This document shows, one piece after another, positions 5,685-15,202 of a DNA stretch of 15,755 nucleotides. The stretch's first letter is position 1; each line of letters opens with the position of its first letter. This DNA is from a virus. Lineage: Duplodnaviria > Heunggongvirae > Uroviricota > Caudoviricetes. The position numbers and the translations under genes were made by a program. The stretch lies in IMG/VR virus record IMGVR_UViG_2690316188_000011; one strand, written 5' to 3'. The notes below the pieces were generated by a model. That model was not told the origin of the DNA and searched no databases. It saw nothing but the letters and a program-made list of their open reading frames with translations.

Positions 5685-5708
5685 AAGGCCGCCTGTGCGG
5701 CTTTTTTT
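5685..5708 (+). terminator. Hairpin plus T-run in the D-E intergenic region (attenuator/terminator-like)
   Basis: GCCGC (5688-5692), loop CTGT, GCGGC (5697-5701), then TTTTTTT (5702-5708). Sits in the 55-nt D-E gap, the same spacing as lambda. Confidence 0.4.
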
Positions 5709-5721
5709 ACGGGATTTTTTT

Positions 5722-5997
5722 ATGTCGATGTACACAACCGCCCAGCTGCTGGCGGCAAATGAGAAGAAATTTAAGTTTGATCCGCTGTTTCTGCGTCTCT
5801 TTTTCCGTGAGAGCTATCCCTTCACCACGGAGAAAGTCTATCTCTCACAAATTCCGGGACTGGTAAACATGGCGCTGTACGTTTCGCCGATTGTTTCCGG
5901 TGAGGTTATCCGCTCCCGTGGCGGCTCCACCTCTGAATTTACACCGGGATATGTCAAGCCGAAGCACTTAGCATGGCTTTCTGAGGCTTTCGTGTAG
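5722..5997 (+). pseudogene. E: Major capsid protein gpE, truncated: 83 N-terminal codons then unrelated sequence and a stop
   Basis: ATG 5722 gives MSMYTTAQLLAANEKKFKFDPLFLRLFFRESYPFTTEKVYLSQIPGLVNMALYVSPIVSGEVIRSRGGSTSEFTPGYVKPKH, colinear with lambda gpE (341 aa in lambda). After codon H83 (ends 5966) the frame reads LAWLSEAFV-stop, which is not E sequence. Downstream DNA is AT-rich and leads into the integrase gene. Confidence 0.85.
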
Positions 5998-6129
5998 TTG
6001 CTGGTTTTTACACTTAATCTTTTGATAATAAAGAATAAGTTTATCTGGTGCTTTCACTGAATTTTCCTCGTTATCTGTGTGTTGCAATCATCTCTGTATT
6101 GCAGCTTGTATTGCTTTTTGGGGCTAAAA

Positions 6130-7366: not shown

Positions 7367-7588
7367 ATGAAAAAAATGGCAATTGTCGATAAAAAGGGTC
7401 TGGAGTACATTCCTAATATCGATCGTATGATCCGTGAGAAAGAATGTCGGGAGCTAACCACTCTTGCGAACAGCACACGCTGGAAGCTGGAGAAGGAAGG
7501 AAAATTTCCTAAGCGGATCAAGATTGGTTCCACTGCTGTTGCATATCGTCTTTCAGAAGTGCAGGCATGGATTAGGGGAGAGTGGTAA
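7367..7588 (+). CDS. alpA: AlpA-family HTH regulator / excisionase-like protein
   Basis: 73 aa; core ELTTLANSTRWKLEKEGKFPKRIKIGSTAVAYRLSEVQAWI fits the AlpA/MerR-like winged-HTH pattern. Lies immediately after int (stop TAA 7363-7365, start 7367), the usual int-alpA arrangement of Gram-negative PICI/P4-like elements. Confidence 0.8.
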   Translation: MKKMAIVDKKGLEYIPNIDRMIREKECRELTTLANSTRWKLEKEGKFPKRIKIGSTAVAYRLSEVQAWIRGEW

Positions 7589-7607
7589 GAATTTAGACAG
7601 TGGATGT

Positions 7608-7634
7608 AATCCTATGGGGTAAACCCATAGGATT
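7608..7634. terminator. Hairpin between convergent genes (candidate bidirectional terminator)
   Basis: AATCCTATGGG (7608-7618), loop GTAAA, CCCATAGGATT (7624-7634): perfect 11-bp stem. Lies between the alpA stop (7588) and the stop of the leftward 449-aa gene (7640). No strong T-tract on either side, so terminator function is uncertain. Confidence 0.4.
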
Positions 7635-7639
7635 TGAAA

Positions 7640-8989
7640 TCACTTAAATTCAAATACGTGCGTAGTTGATGAGATTATATAATTAGGTGGTAAGTATTGA
7701 ACTATTTCTCCATCTTCTTCAAAAATATGAATAACTCTTGGGAATAATTCAGGGCGTATAGGATTTAATGCCTTCGGATTATGAAACATGTATATTGCTG
7801 TACACCATGGTTCTTGATATGAAGGTGCATTGACAAGAGCAGTAAAAGGCATTGGGGTACAGCCTTCATCAGTTTTAATACCTCTAACGATGGATTTGAC
7901 ATTTTTTTGTTCAATCCCTGCCACTACTCCCATCCTATCAAATTTTGGGATGGTGGCATGTGTCGCAAGTAATATGGCTGAGACATTCTCATTTTTATTA
8001 GAGCCGAAAAAATTAGATTGTATACTTCGATTTTCAAATAAATGTTGTTCAATTTTACTTCCAGAATCCATATCTACACCATACAGATAGCTTTGTAGTG
8101 CTGGCATTGATATACTCATCGAAAATCTGCGTGAGTAATCGTGTAAAGCAATAATGAAAGGCTTTCCTTTTGTATGATCTAGTTCCCAATAGCATAATTT
8201 TAAGGGTTCAGGTTTATGCCTAACTTTCTTTAATAGAGTGCGGGCAAATTTGAATGGCATTTGTTCTTTTACATATCTCTGAAGATCTTCTACTGCCTCA
8301 TGATCAAGTATCAATTTCTCGGTAGGTTCCTCTTGTTCTGCAACTGTGGCAGCTTCTACAGCAATATCAATGCCATTTTTTGAGATAATATAATCAGGTT
8401 GAGCATAATCTCTGCATATTACGAAATCCATTTCGTAGAAAACTGCGTTTAGATAAAGTTCGAATAAGCGAGAGTTAAATGAAGCACTCTGGAAATCTCT
8501 GATGAATATTCCATCAGGATCTTTACACCAATAAGCTAACTCTTGCATAACAATAAATGCAGGATAGTGTTTGGGTTCCTCAAGTAGCATTCTTAGATAA
8601 ACGTTTTTTTTATGTTCTGGAACTTTGGCTAGGAATATTGAAAATGCCGACTCTGATTCGTCACCCTGTATAAAACAACCGTTCTTGTGTAGTGATAATA
8701 GCTCTGGTATGGCTTTTTCCATATCAGTAATTAAATCATCTTTAGATTCACGGGATACAATTACTTTAATCGCTCTAAATTTTTTATCTAAATCCCTACC
8801 TAGAAATATAGCGTTGTAATCATTATCTATTTTACAAAAAACAATTGTTGCTAAGATCGTGACATCATCCTTTATAAATTTGAACCAACAGATTTCCTCC
8901 GAAAAGGTTTTTACGTATGGTGTACGACCATAGAAAAATACATCAAATTGTTCTTTACTGATTTCTAGCATTTTGTGACTTGTTGTCAT
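7640..8989 (-). CDS. Hypothetical 449-aa protein, no family recognised; candidate defence/exclusion cargo
   Basis: Long uninterrupted minus-strand ORF in a visibly AT-rich segment. ATG at 8989 is preceded by AAGGA about 8 nt upstream. Starts 23 nt after the upstream RHH gene stop on the same strand (operon-like). I recognise no catalytic motif with confidence. Confidence 0.7.
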   Translation of the reverse strand: MTTSHKMLEISKEQFDVFFYGRTPYVKTFSEEICWFKFIKDDVTILATIVFCKIDNDYNAIFLGRDLDKKFRAIKVIVSRESKDDLITDMEKAIPELLSLHKNGCFIQGDESESAFSIFLAKVPEHKKNVYLRMLLEEPKHYPAFIVMQELAYWCKDPDGIFIRDFQSASFNSRLFELYLNAVFYEMDFVICRDYAQPDYIISKNGIDIAVEAATVAEQEEPTEKLILDHEAVEDLQRYVKEQMPFKFARTLLKKVRHKPEPLKLCYWELDHTKGKPFIIALHDYSRRFSMSISMPALQSYLYGVDMDSGSKIEQHLFENRSIQSNFFGSNKNENVSAILLATHATIPKFDRMGVVAGIEQKNVKSIVRGIKTDEGCTPMPFTALVNAPSYQEPWCTAIYMFHNPKALNPIRPELFPRVIHIFEEDGEIVQYLPPNYIISSTTHVFEFK

Positions 8990-9012: not shown

Positions 9013-9207
9013 TCAGCCTTTAGGTGTTATTCCTTGTTTTATTAGTTCGGCACGAGCCAGTTCTTTTAGCCAGTTACCTAAGCTCATCCCTTCTTTGGCA
9101 GCGACATTAACCATTTGTTCTTTTAATTCTGGGTTAATACGGACTTGGAATGCTGGTGCTTTACCTGCACCTTTCGGTTGTTTATCACGTTGAATGATAG
9201 TTGACAT
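9013..9207 (-). CDS. Ribbon-helix-helix (Arc/MetJ/CopG-like) DNA-binding protein
   Basis: 64 aa, MSTIIQRDKQPKGAGKAPAFQVRINPELKEQMVNVAAKEGMSLGNWLKELARAELIKQGITPKG. An alternating beta-strand segment (PAFQVRINP) followed by two short helices fits the RHH fold pattern. First gene of the leftward operon; a perfect inverted repeat abuts its start codon. Confidence 0.7.
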   Translation of the reverse strand: MSTIIQRDKQPKGAGKAPAFQVRINPELKEQMVNVAAKEGMSLGNWLKELARAELIKQGITPKG

Positions 9208-10458: not shown

Positions 10459-12206
10459 AACTGGCACCGAACTTAAAAAAACAGCCACGCGACAGACTGA
10501 CAGAGGTAATCATCTTTGCAGGTAGTGATGCGTGGAGCCATGCGAAAGAGTGGCGGGAATGGGCGGGTAAACATATTGCCGCCGACGATGTGCCGCCTGT
10601 CGTGCTGGCTGATGAGCAACTGAAAAATATCACCGATTACCGGATCATTGATGAAGATCGTCAGTGTGTGCGTGTTTACCGCGCAGGACATATCACAGAG
10701 CACAGCATGACGCAGATTGTTACGTTACTGGCTGTGGCTGGAGTGAAGACCGTACACGAATACGCGGGGATTACTGACACCAGCCCAGTGGATTTATCCG
10801 AGCAGTTGCCGCGACTCAAAGAGGAATGCGAGCGTGGGGAAAGTCTGGTGCTTAATCTTCCGACGAAGCAAAAGGCGCAACTTTCACAGATGGCAGACAG
10901 TGAACGTGCACAACTACTTGCCGATCGCTTTGATGGTGTGTGTGTTCATGCAGAAAGTGAAATCGTCCACGTATGGCGCGGCGGGGTATGGTGTCCGGTC
11001 AGCACAATGGAGCTGAGCCGCGAAATGGTGGCGATCTATTCAGAGCACAGGGCCACGTTCAGCAAACGTGTAATCAATAACGCCGTGGAAGCGTTAAAAG
11101 TTATTGCCGACCCCATGGGGGAGCCGTCCGGTGATTTGCTACCGTTCACTAATGGTGTGCTTAACCTGAAAACGGGGGAATTTTCTCCGCACTCGCCGGA
11201 GCACTGGAGCACCACGCACAATGGCATTGAGTACACGCCACCAGTAGCAGGGGAAAACATCCGCGATAATGCGCCAAATTTCCATAAATGGCTTGAACAT
11301 GCTGCAAGAAAAGACCCGCGTAAGATGATGCGTATATGTGCCGCGTTATACATGATTATGGCGAACCGCTACGACTGGCAGATGTTCATTGAGGCCACCG
11401 GAGACGGGGGAAGCGGTAAGAGTACATTTACCCATATTGCCACCCTGCTTGCTGGCAAACAGAACACCGTAAGCGCGGAGATGACATCACTCGATGATGC
11501 AGGAGGGCGCGCGCAGGTTGTCGGGAGTCGTCTTATCGTCCTTGCCGATCAGCCGAAATATACGGGGGAAGGCACGGGCATCAAGAAAATCACGGGAGGC
11601 GATCCCGTTGAAATTAACCCGAAATATGAGAAGCGATTCACGACGATAATAAGGGCGGTGGTACTGGCAACCAATAACGACCCGATGATCTTTACCGAAC
11701 GGGCCGGAGGTGTGTCACGCCGTCGGGTGATTTTCCGGTTCGACAACATTGTAAGGGAGGACGAAAAAGACAAGGAATTACCGGAAAAGATAGCGGCAGA
11801 AATCCCCGTAATTATCCGCCGCTTGCTGGCTAATTTTGCTGCCCCTGAAAAGGCACGGGCTTTATTACTGGAACAGCGTGACGGTGATGAAGCTCTGGCA
11901 ATAAAGCAGCAAACGGATCCGGTTGTTGAGCTTTGCGCGGCGCTGGAGTTTCTGGAGGAAGCTCGTGGGCTAATGATGGGCGGTGGTGGTGACACCGTGA
12001 AGTACACGACCAGAAACAGCCTTTACCGTGTCTATATGGCCTTCATGGCATACACAGGAAAGGGGAAATGTTTGAGCGTGAATGAGTTCGGAAAGGCTAT
12101 GAGGTCAGCGGCGAAAGTTTACGGATATGAATATATTACGCGAAAAGTTAAGGGAGTCACGCAGACCAACGCAACGACTACTGATGATTGCGATGCGTTT
12201 TTATAA
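10455..12206 (+). CDS. Replication initiator: primase / SF3-helicase fusion (P4 alpha / D5-like NTPase)
   Basis: 583 aa. Walker A P-loop GDGGSGKST in the sequence ...FIEATGDGGSGKSTFTHIATLLAG..., with a Walker-B-like hydrophobic stretch plus acidic residue (RLIVLADQP) downstream. An iteron array follows the stop, as in P4-type and PICI pri-rep/ori modules. Confidence 0.85.
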   Translation: MKLAPNLKKQPRDRLTEVIIFAGSDAWSHAKEWREWAGKHIAADDVPPVVLADEQLKNITDYRIIDEDRQCVRVYRAGHITEHSMTQIVTLLAVAGVKTVHEYAGITDTSPVDLSEQLPRLKEECERGESLVLNLPTKQKAQLSQMADSERAQLLADRFDGVCVHAESEIVHVWRGGVWCPVSTMELSREMVAIYSEHRATFSKRVINNAVEALKVIADPMGEPSGDLLPFTNGVLNLKTGEFSPHSPEHWSTTHNGIEYTPPVAGENIRDNAPNFHKWLEHAARKDPRKMMRICAALYMIMANRYDWQMFIEATGDGGSGKSTFTHIATLLAGKQNTVSAEMTSLDDAGGRAQVVGSRLIVLADQPKYTGEGTGIKKITGGDPVEINPKYEKRFTTIIRAVVLATNNDPMIFTERAGGVSRRRVIFRFDNIVREDEKDKELPEKIAAEIPVIIRRLLANFAAPEKARALLLEQRDGDEALAIKQQTDPVVELCAALEFLEEARGLMMGGGGDTVKYTTRNSLYRVYMAFMAYTGKGKCLSVNEFGKAMRSAAKVYGYEYITRKVKGVTQTNATTTDDCDAFL

Positions 12207-12217
12207 AAAATGGCAAT

Positions 12218-12452
12218 GGTTATCTACCTTGTCTACCTGACTGAAAGAAAATACTTTTATTTCAATGTATTAATGCAGGTAGATAACTATTTTTCACTGT
12301 CTACCTGTTATCTACCTTATCTACCCATTTTTGTAGACAGGTAAGGAGACGGGTAGAGATGAGGTAGACAGCTATTTGGGGCTGTCTACCTCCCTGAAAC
12401 CCGCGCCATTACTGGCCTGATAACTAATCAGGTAGACAAGGTAGACAAGGTG
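12218..12452. repeat. Iteron array: candidate origin of replication
   Basis: About 11 copies of the core TCTACC / GGTAGA (extended TGTCTACC / GGTAGACA) in both orientations, for example 12223, 12232, 12278 (rev), 12300, 12311, 12320, 12352 (rev), 12363 (rev), 12385, 12431 (rev), 12440 (rev). An AT-rich spacer at 12241-12275 may be an unwinding element. Confidence 0.7.
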
Positions 12453-12495
12453 GTGGTGCACAAAAAACTTTTTAAACGAGGGGGTAAAAATAAAA

Positions 12496-12753
12496 ATGCA
12501 CACATCAGGAAAACTGAACAAACATATAAAGCCACATTACCGCGCCCTTGATATGGCTGAACACTGGCTAAGGGTGGCGATTAAGGCAATAGACCGCAAC
12601 GCCGGGGAAGGATACGCGAAAGCACATCCCGAACTGATAAGCGCATTCATGACAACGGCGGCTGCAAACTTTGCCACGCTGACCGAACGGGAGATTGCTG
12701 AAGCGGAGGAAGTGACAACAATCAATATTAAGTCCGGAGAGCAGGCAGCATGA
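12496..12753 (+). CDS. Hypothetical 85-aa protein, translationally coupled to the SSB-like gene
   Basis: ATG 12496 with GAGGGGG upstream. Stop TGA 12751-12753 overlaps ATG 12750 of the next gene. Confidence 0.5.
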   Translation: MHTSGKLNKHIKPHYRALDMAEHWLRVAIKAIDRNAGEGYAKAHPELISAFMTTAAANFATLTEREIAEAEEVTTINIKSGEQAA

Positions 12754-13199
12754 CGGCGCAAATATCAGTTTACGGGCGGTTGGTGGACGACCCGCAGACA
12801 AAACAGACCAGCAAGGGCACCCCCATGACGCTGGCGCGTATGGCGGTATCACTGCCCTGCAGTCAGTCGGATGACGGTCTGGCGACGTTGTGGTTATCTG
12901 TCCTGGCGTTTGGCAGACAAGCCGACGCGCTGGCAAAGCATCACAAAGGCGAACTCCTGAGCGTGGCGGGTAACATGCAGATGAGCCAGTGGACTGGACA
13001 GAACGGCGAAACGCGGCAGGGCTGGCAGGTTATCGCAGACAGCGTAATCAGTGCGCGATCGGTGCGACCGGGCGGCAAAAAAGGCCAACAGGGGCAGGCT
13101 ACTGACGCACTGAACAGAGCAAAACAACAGGCAGATCAGCAAGGAAGCCAGCCACCAGAGGGAGATAATGAGCAATGGGGAGATGATATCCCGTTTTAA
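12750..13199 (+). CDS. Single-stranded DNA-binding protein (SSB-like OB fold with acidic C-terminal tail)
   Basis: 149 aa. N-terminal pattern ISVYGRLVDDPQTKQT...WLSVLAFGRQAD resembles the SSB OB fold (VxGRL..DPE ... W..V..FG). Gly/Gln-rich linker and C-terminus ...EQWGDDIPF, which matches the conserved SSB tail motif DDDIPF. Confidence 0.75.
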   Translation: MTAQISVYGRLVDDPQTKQTSKGTPMTLARMAVSLPCSQSDDGLATLWLSVLAFGRQADALAKHHKGELLSVAGNMQMSQWTGQNGETRQGWQVIADSVISARSVRPGGKKGQQGQATDALNRAKQQADQQGSQPPEGDNEQWGDDIPF

Positions 13200-13217
13200 A
13201 TATTGCCAATAAAAAAA

Positions 13218-13241
13218 GCCGGAAAAAATAAATTTTCCGGC
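13218..13241 (-). terminator. Hairpin with U-tract on the minus strand (leftward terminator-like)
   Basis: GCCGGAAAA (13218-13226), loop AATAAA, TTTTCCGGC (13233-13241). The A-run at 13211-13217 becomes a U-tract 3' of the hairpin only for leftward transcripts. Confidence 0.4.
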
Positions 13242-13415
13242 ATGCTACATAAATCCCGACCAAAGGGAGTGAAGATATTAACACTAATTGTCCGCACTGA
13301 AGTTGTCACCCCAAAACTTTATACAACATTGCACTCGGTTGCATGTGTTCGCATGACAAATATCGGTGATAGCATATATCCACAATTATTTTTAATGAAT
13401 GCAAAGAGGATGCGT

Positions 13416-14456
13416 ATGGTTGATTTATATTCGCCTACCCAGCTTGTACAGGTGGTTAATGCTGTAGATGTACAAAAACAACTAAATGCGTTGTTTACCA
13501 GTTTGTTTTTTACTCGCTCGGTAATGTTTGGATCGCGCGATATTATTCTTGATACAATCGACGATCCAAATATCCCAATTGCAGCGTTTTGTTCTCCTAT
13601 GGTGGGTAGTAAAGTTTCACGTGACGAAGGGTACGAATCAAAAACAATTCGTCCAGGCTATATGAAGCCGAAAAGCAGCATTGATCCAAATAAGTTAGCT
13701 GTGCGCCCTGCTGGTGTATCACCTGAGCAATACAATGCTTTTGGGGCGCGTAATATTAAAGTTAAACAGGCGATTGTAAATCAAGCTAAAGCTATTCGTG
13801 CACGTATTGAATGGCTTGCCGTTCAGGCAATCACAACGGGGAAAAATATCATTGAGGGCGATGGTATTGAACGTTATGAGCTGGACTGGAATATTAAACC
13901 ACAAAATATCATCACTCAGTCTGGCGGTACTGAGTGGTCAGGTAAGGATAAAGAAACTTTTGATCCAAATGATGATATTGAGAGCTACGCAGAATTTAGT
14001 GAGGGCGTCACTAATATCATCATTATGGGCGGTAATGTATGGAAGAAATACCGTTCATTCAGAGCGATAAAAGAGGCTCTGGATACCCGTCGTGGTTCTA
14101 ATTCCGAACTGGAAACGGCCCTTAAAGACCTTGGTGATTCGGTGAGTTTTAAAGGATATATGGGCGATGTTGCGATTGTTGTTTACAGCGGGCGTTATAC
14201 CGACGAGGACGGAACTGAAAAACATTTCCTTGATCCTGATTTGATGGTGCTTGGCAATACGGCTCTTCAGGGGATTGTCGCCTATGGCGGTATTCAGGAT
14301 CCGGAGCTAATCCGAATGGGGCTGACTAAAGCCGAACTTGCACCGAAAAACTATATTGTGCCTGGTGATCCGGCTATTGAATATGTGCAGACACATTCAG
14401 CACCACAGCCAATACCGGCCCGCATCAATCGTTTTGTTACCGTTCGCATTGGCTAA
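13416..14456 (+). CDS. Major capsid protein, lambda gpE family, divergent paralogue
   Basis: From ATG 13416 (AGAGGA at 13405-13410): MVDLYSPTQL...RPGYMKPKS...NIITQSGGTEWSGKDKETFDPNDDIESYA...YRSFRAIKEALDTRRGSNSELETALKDLGDSVSFKGYMGDVAIVVYSGRY...MVLGNT... Colinear with lambda gpE as I recall it (E has NITQSGGTEWSKRDKSTYDPTDDIEAYA...FRSFKAVKEKLDTRRGSNSELETAVKDLGKAVSYKGMYGDVAIVVYSGQY...MVLGNT) but clearly diverged. The ORF-track start at 13203 is rejected because it runs through a hairpin and a non-coding-looking leader. Confidence 0.85.
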   Translation: MVDLYSPTQLVQVVNAVDVQKQLNALFTSLFFTRSVMFGSRDIILDTIDDPNIPIAAFCSPMVGSKVSRDEGYESKTIRPGYMKPKSSIDPNKLAVRPAGVSPEQYNAFGARNIKVKQAIVNQAKAIRARIEWLAVQAITTGKNIIEGDGIERYELDWNIKPQNIITQSGGTEWSGKDKETFDPNDDIESYAEFSEGVTNIIIMGGNVWKKYRSFRAIKEALDTRRGSNSELETALKDLGDSVSFKGYMGDVAIVVYSGRYTDEDGTEKHFLDPDLMVLGNTALQGIVAYGGIQDPELIRMGLTKAELAPKNYIVPGDPAIEYVQTHSAPQPIPARINRFVTVRIG

Positions 14457-14818: not shown

Positions 14819-15202
14819 ATGCAAAATGATTACAATGACCTTAAGCCAATTGCCGAAATGATGTACCCGAATCCAGCTGTAGAGGAATTAAAAGCTATCG
14901 CTGACAAAATGTGTTTAAGCGAGCGCCTTGTTGATATGAATCAGGTGATGGAAATTACAACCCTGAGTCGGCGTACACTGCTAAACCTTGAGGCTAGTGG
15001 AGAGTTCCCGGAGCGTGTGCAGGTTACGGAAGGGCGTAAGGCCTGGTATTTAAGTGAAGTGATCGACTGGATAAATAATATTCCTCGCGCTTCTGAATAT
15101 TGCCGCGTACCTGTCCCAAAAAAGCCAGATGCGGCGCTATGCCTCAAGATTGAGCGTGTACGCCGCAATGCACGGGATGGTCGCTATAAGCTGATTGGTT
15201 GA
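14819..15202 (+). CDS. AlpA/MerR-like winged-HTH protein next to cos; candidate packaging-redirection (Rpp-like) factor
   Basis: 127 aa. Central segment MNQVMEITTLSRRTLLNLEASGEFPERVQVTEGRKAWYLSEVIDWI fits the AlpA / Nu1-N-terminal HTH pattern. Last gene before cos; RBS AAGGGGGA as in the two capsid genes. Confidence 0.55.
   Translation: MQNDYNDLKPIAEMMYPNPAVEELKAIADKMCLSERLVDMNQVMEITTLSRRTLLNLEASGEFPERVQVTEGRKAWYLSEVIDWINNIPRASEYCRVPVPKKPDAALCLKIERVRRNARDGRYKLIG

Follow-up and report, generated by a model that had tools for sequence, protein, structure and literature searches.

The window, by which we mean the whole 15,755-nt stretch of DNA analysed here, carries the structural genes of a prophage followed by an inserted island. 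Between position 1 and ~5997 lie lambda-like genes for terminase, portal, protease/scaffold and decoration proteins, together with one for a truncated major capsid protein E; among the window ORFs, counterparts of lambda A, W, B, C and D and the truncated E sit immediately 5′ of int. A co-oriented island starts at position 6079 and encodes, in order, a tyrosine integrase, AlpA, a minus-strand 449-aa gene, several small ORFs, a DUF4222 protein, the 583-aa replication protein Pri, a non-coding stretch, an 85-aa ORF, an SSB (single-stranded DNA-binding protein), an E-like major capsid protein, a D-like decoration protein and a second AlpA-like gene. In an annotated twin locus from strain EC4 (L001), the island lies between 5′ and 3′ fragments of the prophage major capsid gene E. 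The island is within, and co-oriented with, this lambda-E-like gene of a lambdoid prophage (window ~5695-6079; twin locus 7588-7833 / 19159-19947), and its right junction falls beyond the window end.

As judged from sequence, the element is a helper-embedded phage-inducible chromosomal island (PICI) of the capE group (Tommasini 2023 type). Domain hits and an iteron scan recovered the expected layout, int-alpA ... pri-ori in a single direction, with iterons marking the origin 3′ of pri. Dependence on a helper for induction, excision, replication and packaging is known from related islands (PMC10111431, PMC6092414). The earlier note had called the SSB satellite-encoded, and its gene does lie inside the helper-embedded PICI.

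In the accessory zone of the island, the 449-aa ORF (7640-8989, minus strand) is a full-length match to the anti-phage system PD-T7-1 (PADLOC E = 1.3e-153). The otherwise near-identical island of strain EC4 has DUF2971 and SWIM genes at this spot, which looks like a hot spot for cargo swaps. A 64-aa ORF beside the PD-T7-1 gene (9013-9207, minus strand) has a weak HicB-like match, just below the Pfam cut-off (E = 5e-4), and could be a small regulator or antitoxin-like partner. The second AlpA-type helix-turn-helix protein (14819-15202, 127 aa, phrog_2790) follows the decoration-like gene, and the equivalent position in EcCICFT073 holds an unannotated 137-aa gene (L003 11800-12213).

The replication zone is compact (Table 1). 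All 10 window copies of GGTAGAYA fall between 12221 and 12447, against a chance expectation of 0.34, and the iteron layout is that of the Gram-negative PICI origins described in PMC6092414. The E-like capsid and D-like decoration genes lie downstream, so the 85-aa ORF and SSB gene sit between origin and capsid genes, as had been proposed. The N-terminal 152 aa of Pri returned zero Pfam matches and contain no recognizable primase domain (Toprim, Zn-ribbon or AEP). Island priming may depend on the host. A scan of positions 12150-13500 found no sigma-70-like promoter, and an Rfam scan of the window found zero families. A GC-rich hairpin lies directly 3′ of the SSB stop codon, with a T-run on the minus strand only and an A-run preceding it on the plus strand. 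The gap from the SSB gene to the capsid gene start (13416, RefSeq annotation) is 216 nt, and the hairpin could mark the border between the replication and late zones.

Table 1. Features of the island replication zone (window coordinates).
Feature	Position	Strand	Basis or detail
Pri, island replication protein, 583 aa	10455..12206	+	D5_N + DUF5906 (P-loop/SF3-type helicase region) + Pox_D5 C-terminal domain; Pfam, NCBIfam (P4-family primase C-terminal domain)
Replication origin	12221..12447	.	10 GGTAGAYA iterons in both orientations around an AT-rich stretch (~12245-12275)
Shine-Dalgarno-like GAGGGGG	12478..12484	+	11 nt 5′ of the 85-aa ORF start; read from sequence
85-aa ORF	12496..12753	+	phrog_1231 family
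GGAGAG Shine-Dalgarno of the SSB gene	12736..12741	+	Within the 3′ end of the 85-aa ORF
ATGA start/stop overlap	12750..12753	+	SSB ATG 12750-12752 over 85-aa TGA 12751-12753
SSB ORF, 149 aa	12750-13199	+	Pfam/NCBIfam SSB
SSB OB-fold domain, residues 1-104	12750..13061	+	PF00436 over residues 4-99; PDB SSB chain matches
SSB linker, residues 105-140, G/Q/A/K-rich	13062..13169	+	Length variable among homologues
SSB C-terminal tip EQWGDDIPF + stop codon	13170..13199	+	Translation and homologue alignment
GC-rich hairpin GCCGGAAAA-N6-TTTTCCGGC	13218..13241	.	Directly 3′ of the SSB stop; terminator score on minus strand only

The coordinates previously given for the two ORFs, and their ATGA overlap, are exact: the SSB start shares four bases with the stop of the 85-aa ORF (gcagcATGAcggcg). 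Copies of positions 12200-13250 that are 100% identical occur in several E. coli chromosomes, and in strain EC4 the products carry the RefSeq names ‘hypothetical protein’ (WP_001356810.1, 85-aa) and ‘single-stranded DNA-binding protein’ (WP_001710062.1, SSB). Estimates of dN/dS of 0.10-0.25 for the 85-aa gene and 0.16-0.35 for the SSB gene indicate purifying selection on both. With these low ratios and identical annotated copies, neither is a chance ORF.

By sequence, the 149-aa product is a standard SSB of the bacterial type, in which a short linker of low complexity joins the OB domain to an SSB-Ct tip. It scored 57.1 bits against Pfam PF00436 (cut-off 26) and 67.2 bits against NCBIfam TIGR00621 ssb (cut-off 53.95), and a PDB sequence search matched solved structures, including 1z9f over residues 5-99 (E = 4e-11) and E. 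coli SSB chains; the OB fold was assigned from these profile and PDB sequence matches. The linker (residues 105-140) is 67% G/Q/P/N/S/A, and the protein ends in EGDNEQWGDDIPF (...EQWGDDIPF) before the stop codon. Scores above cut-off in both family databases and the terminal WGDDIPF uphold the original description of an SSB-like protein with a canonical tail.

The OB domain shares 23% identity with that of E. coli SSB. Alignments place W48, F54 and W81 as the equivalents of E. coli W54, F60 and W88, and these residues are invariant in the island family. The position of E. coli W40 is Ser/Cys-rich in island SSBs, with no aromatic residue, and the tetramer-interface His55 of E. coli SSB is replaced by Leu49. 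Among 42 distinct island SSBs, the OB domain is well conserved, the linker falls into three length classes (proteins of 136, 140 and 149 aa) and the tip follows the pattern aromatic-G-D-[D/N/E/G]-I-P-F. Across related loci, 73 of 81 have GD[DNEG]IPF and 76 of 81 end in PF. Recognition of SSB-Ct involves a pocket for the terminal Phe, the Pro, and contacts of Asp residues with a basic ridge (PMC10164576); the island tip has all residues of these rules (terminal Phe, Pro, Asp), and every linker class exceeds the 11-20-residue minimum given in that study. Truncated SSB genes occur in seven related islands (L002, L006, L012, L020, L029, L034 and L055), where products lacking the tip are 118-127 aa and those lacking the N-terminus are 53-90 aa. 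These copies suggest decay or dispensability in some islands.

Comparison with 50,697 phage genomes found no relative of the SSB above 33% identity, and matches occurred in 51 of 72,556 plasmid records, 36 of which were typed as non-mobilizable. Rare in plasmids and with no close relative in those phage genomes, the lineage appears to be satellite-specific. DNA resembling the pair, in whole or in part, was found in 1,790 of 5,426 complete E. coli genomes, with query coverage of at least 80% in 832 of these. The pair is real, widespread in E. coli and already annotated in RefSeq. SSB genes in Gram-negative PICIs are also already in print, in a PICI ‘Replication’ category with Primase and DUF5906 that colocalized with mapped origins (PMC10111431). 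We found no functional study of, or experiment on, the island SSB or the 85-aa protein in the searchable literature.

The 85-aa protein matched phrog_1231, a family of unassigned function, from end to end (E = 3.2e-48; residues 6-84 to profile positions 4-82 of 83). It matched no Pfam or NCBIfam family and had no match in the 50,697 phage genomes. Close homologues came from Enterobacteriaceae only, all annotated as ‘hypothetical’, with strong conservation across residues 17-82. The N-terminus (residues 1-16) is basic (pI 10.5) and variable, the core (residues 17-62) is conserved with the motif ...ID..xGEGYAKxHPELIxAFMxTAAxNF, and the C-terminal helix is acidic. An AlphaFold2 model built from a 75-sequence alignment is a helical hairpin (helices 13-36 and 45-84; core pLDDT >90, mean 78.7), and structure searches with it found no informative match and no solved relative.

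A profile search of 1.84 billion protein representatives extended the family to 589 proteins (E ≤ 0.001) of 70-140 aa that share the motif A..Y...AI..ID..xGxGYAKxHPELIxAFMxTAAxDF. Members are unnamed and without Pfam domains, and distant relatives also match phrog_1231. These distant relatives stand alone or in varied early-gene contexts, including among small early genes, with neighbours such as AlpA and a DUF927 helicase (L165), a primase-helicase (L149) or a CI-like repressor (L084). In L165 (4729-5255), an integrase-bearing element in a Nitrosomonas chromosome, the distant member overlaps the AlpA stop and is followed by the DUF927 helicase; the family therefore reaches satellite-like elements of Betaproteobacteria. 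That the wider family always accompanies an SSB was considered and rejected, as no SSB lies within 3.5 kb of the family member at any of ~14 distant loci. Our best guess, held with low confidence, is that the 85-aa protein is an accessory factor acting on a helicase, origin or ssDNA complex rather than an obligate SSB subunit, and we weakly prefer an accessory factor of the replication zone to a transcription regulator.

At loci with a close homologue of the 85-aa gene, an SSB match lies directly downstream in 80 of 83 cases, seven of them truncated. The ATGA overlap, through which the SSB start meets the stop of the 85-aa ORF, is kept in 63 of 81 related loci; one locus has a TAATG overlap instead, and in one 14-locus lineage a premature TGA in the 85-aa gene leaves an 11-nt gap before the SSB gene. 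The stoichiometric co-expression read from the overlap in the earlier note is overstated, because an ATGA permits coupling without showing 1:1 stoichiometry. Also at odds with it are the SSB gene's own GGAG motif 10 nt upstream of the ATG, the lineage with the gap and the loci that carry one gene only. In L171, an island whose helicase is of the DUF927 type and whose capsid genes are HK97-type, the SSB gene directly follows the origin. All that is left of the 85-aa gene there is its final ~30 nt (...INVKTGEQTA and the stop codon), retained as a GGAG-bearing SSB leader (L171 3480-3540), a relic of recombination at the 85-aa/SSB junction. In L070, L082, L149 and L158, conversely, an 85-aa gene follows the origin without an SSB. 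The SSBs found beside identical 85-aa proteins share 59-100% identity, which indicates free recombination of alleles at the junction. On this sequence evidence the two genes are separable accessories, usually adjacent and probably co-translated, and do not appear to form an obligate complex. The idea that an SSB accompanies those Pri proteins that lack a primase domain was also rejected, because L070 has the Pri type of the window yet no SSB; the window Pri and the L171 DUF927 protein have no Toprim or Zn-ribbon and occur with an SSB, whereas the L149 primase-helicase has both domains and occurs without one.

With moderate confidence, we propose that the pair makes up the distal end of the PICI replication zone, that the SSB is an accessory replication protein linking island forks to host SSB-binding enzymes and that the 85-aa protein is a separable small protein of the same zone, predicted to be a helical hairpin. 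Upon induction, the Pri helicase/initiator would open the iteron origin just upstream of the pair, and the island SSB would cover the single strands exposed at the island origin and forks. Its host-type tip could then bring host SSB-binding enzymes to island DNA, for example the Pol III chi subunit, DnaG, PriA and nucleases or helicases of repair, in keeping with the many genome-maintenance enzymes recruited by SSB-Ct tips (PMC10164576). An island SSB might be most useful during simultaneous replication of helper and island, at which point host SSB is probably scarce. It would be an accessory and not an essential part of the replicon; Pri and ori alone replicate a plasmid in E. coli (PMC6092414), which makes an SSB dispensable for basic replication. 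The 85-aa gene is usually the first after the origin and is probably often translated in tandem with the SSB gene.

Several lines of evidence favour this proposal: the SSB family scores, the fixed tip on a variable linker, purifying selection, the site directly 3′ of Pri and the origin, the same arrangement in EcCICFT073, the SSB downstream at nearly all loci with a close 85-aa homologue and the satellite-specific lineage. The published PICI ‘Replication’ category and the recognition residues in the tip agree with it. So does the precedent of conjugative-plasmid SSBs, which can stand in for host SSB (Golub & Low 1985, as cited in PMC11137577). Against it stand the plasmid replication driven by Pri and ori alone, islands with the same Pri and no SSB (L070), truncation of the SSB in 7 of 81 loci and the lack of W40 and His55 equivalents; for the 85-aa protein, the varied early-gene contexts of distant relatives with no SSB nearby also weigh against it.

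The SSB might instead, along the lines of the earlier note, be mainly a decoy whose tip titrates SSB-interacting proteins off host or helper DNA, to the detriment of helper replication and recombination or of host repair. The canonical and conserved tip would suit such a role, as would an OB domain divergent enough from that of E. coli SSB to act differently on DNA, the satellite-specific lineage and the interference of PICIs with their helpers (PMC6739421, PMC6092414). We nevertheless consider a decoy unlikely. Retention of three of the four aromatic ssDNA-contact residues, together with purifying selection on the OB domain, suggests a working ssDNA binder and not a mere carrier of the tail, and the gene lies beside the origin in the replication zone, not among known interference genes. 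Many tips, moreover, read GDNIPF and have fewer acidic residues than the host tip, which would not be expected of a stronger competitor. The conserved DNA-contact residues and replication-zone location make a decoy less parsimonious than recruitment; bringing host replisome enzymes to island DNA is simpler than sequestering them and fits the replication-zone position (PMC10111431).

It is quite improbable that the SSB, rather than aiding priming at forks, serves recombination, concatemer formation or ssDNA protection, with nucleases or defence systems sensing ssDNA or SSB as the threat. SSB genes of phages and ICEs often lie beside recombination modules, a general pattern that would suit such a function, and the distant 85-aa relative in L088 follows two ORFs that by eye resemble an exonuclease and an annealase, although neither has a Pfam match. 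The island defence gene PD-T7-1 shows a part in phage conflicts, and phage-length concatemers are the form in which the DNA of Gram-negative PICIs is packaged (PMC10111431). However, an ORF and domain survey found no recombinase or annealase gene in the island, and neither the 85-aa protein nor the SSB matched PADLOC defence models (E ≤ 0.01). The position beside Pri and the origin is better explained by replication.

Very doubtful, too, is an obligate stoichiometric complex in which the 85-aa protein acts as loader, chaperone or regulator of the SSB and the ATGA enforces equal dosage. The near-constant adjacency of the genes (80/83 loci) and the common ATGA junction (63/81) are what such a complex would predict, and the 85-aa protein could in principle contact the OB domain or DNA through its acidic C-terminal helix and its basic N-terminus. 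Yet each gene is found alone (the SSB gene in L171, the 85-aa gene in L070, L082, L149 and L158), alleles shuffle independently, distant family members have no SSB neighbour and the SSB gene retains its own Shine-Dalgarno motif. A long shot is that the phrog_1231 proteins of satellites and temperate phages are a new class of small factors modulating the replisome or SSB and that, together with an SSB bearing a host-type tip, they divert the host's SSB interactome to the island and away from helper or host DNA; if true, the two genes would be a replication-level interference device and not simple housekeeping.

An accessory replication role remains our preferred reading of the SSB, and the finding is a correctly read, already annotated accessory pair of a known element type, comprising a mobile-element SSB and a member of an uncharacterized small-protein family. 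This SSB module is present, in whole or in part, on PICI-type satellites in about one-third of complete E. coli genomes, EcCICFT073 included. If the tip plugs into host SSB partners, the module would open a way to study how a satellite obtains the means to replicate while in competition with its helper, and engineered PICI ‘drones’ are a further setting in which it could be relevant. Small, unnamed proteins of the 85-aa family are widespread in the early regions of mobile elements.

Besides phrog_1231, four known systems bear comparison with the pair. E. coli SSB (178 aa, tip MDFDDDIPF) belongs to the same family (PF00436/TIGR00621) and has the same three-part layout. It shares its final five residues, DDIPF, with the island SSB, and both proteins have an aromatic residue at position -7 (W143 in the island SSB, F171 in E. 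coli). In alignment, the island protein retains counterparts of W54, F60 and W88 and has none of W40 or His55. The island linker is shorter (~36 versus ~60 residues) and the island tip less acidic (GDDIPF or GDNIPF). Unlike the chromosomal E. coli gene, the island SSB is satellite-encoded and presumably expressed only upon induction.

SSBs of conjugative plasmids, such as Ssb of the F plasmid, are likewise bacterial-type SSBs of mobile elements with a host-compatible tip. PMC11137577 describes plasmid SSBs as non-essential accessories thought to cover element ssDNA, many of which complement host ssb mutants. They are a different lineage, associated with the leading region and conjugation in contrast to the theta-type satellite replication considered here, and the island SSB is without their psiB/ardA neighbourhood.

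EcCICFT073 has the same gene order of DUF4222, Pri, ori, 85-aa gene (C_RS06990, hypothetical), SSB (C_RS06995, with ATGA), E-like and D-like genes, and its replication zone shares ~80% nucleotide identity with the window. It differs in its 136-aa SSB with a shorter linker, in a perC gene after the SSB and in its chromosomal site, compared with the prophage capsid gene occupied by the window island. The literature on EcCICFT073 characterizes neither gene of the pair. HE-PICI 11capE (Tommasini, Mageeney & Williams 2023), compared here by its published description, likewise lies within the lambda-E-like capsid gene of a lambdoid prophage and has the same orientation as that gene. It has the same zones (int-alpA, accessory, replication and late), with an SSB in the replication category. 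The prophage of 11capE is at icd, whereas the one here has a Qin-like neighbourhood (ydfO/ynfO/nohA), and the accessory zone of the window island, unlike that of 11capE, carries PD-T7-1.
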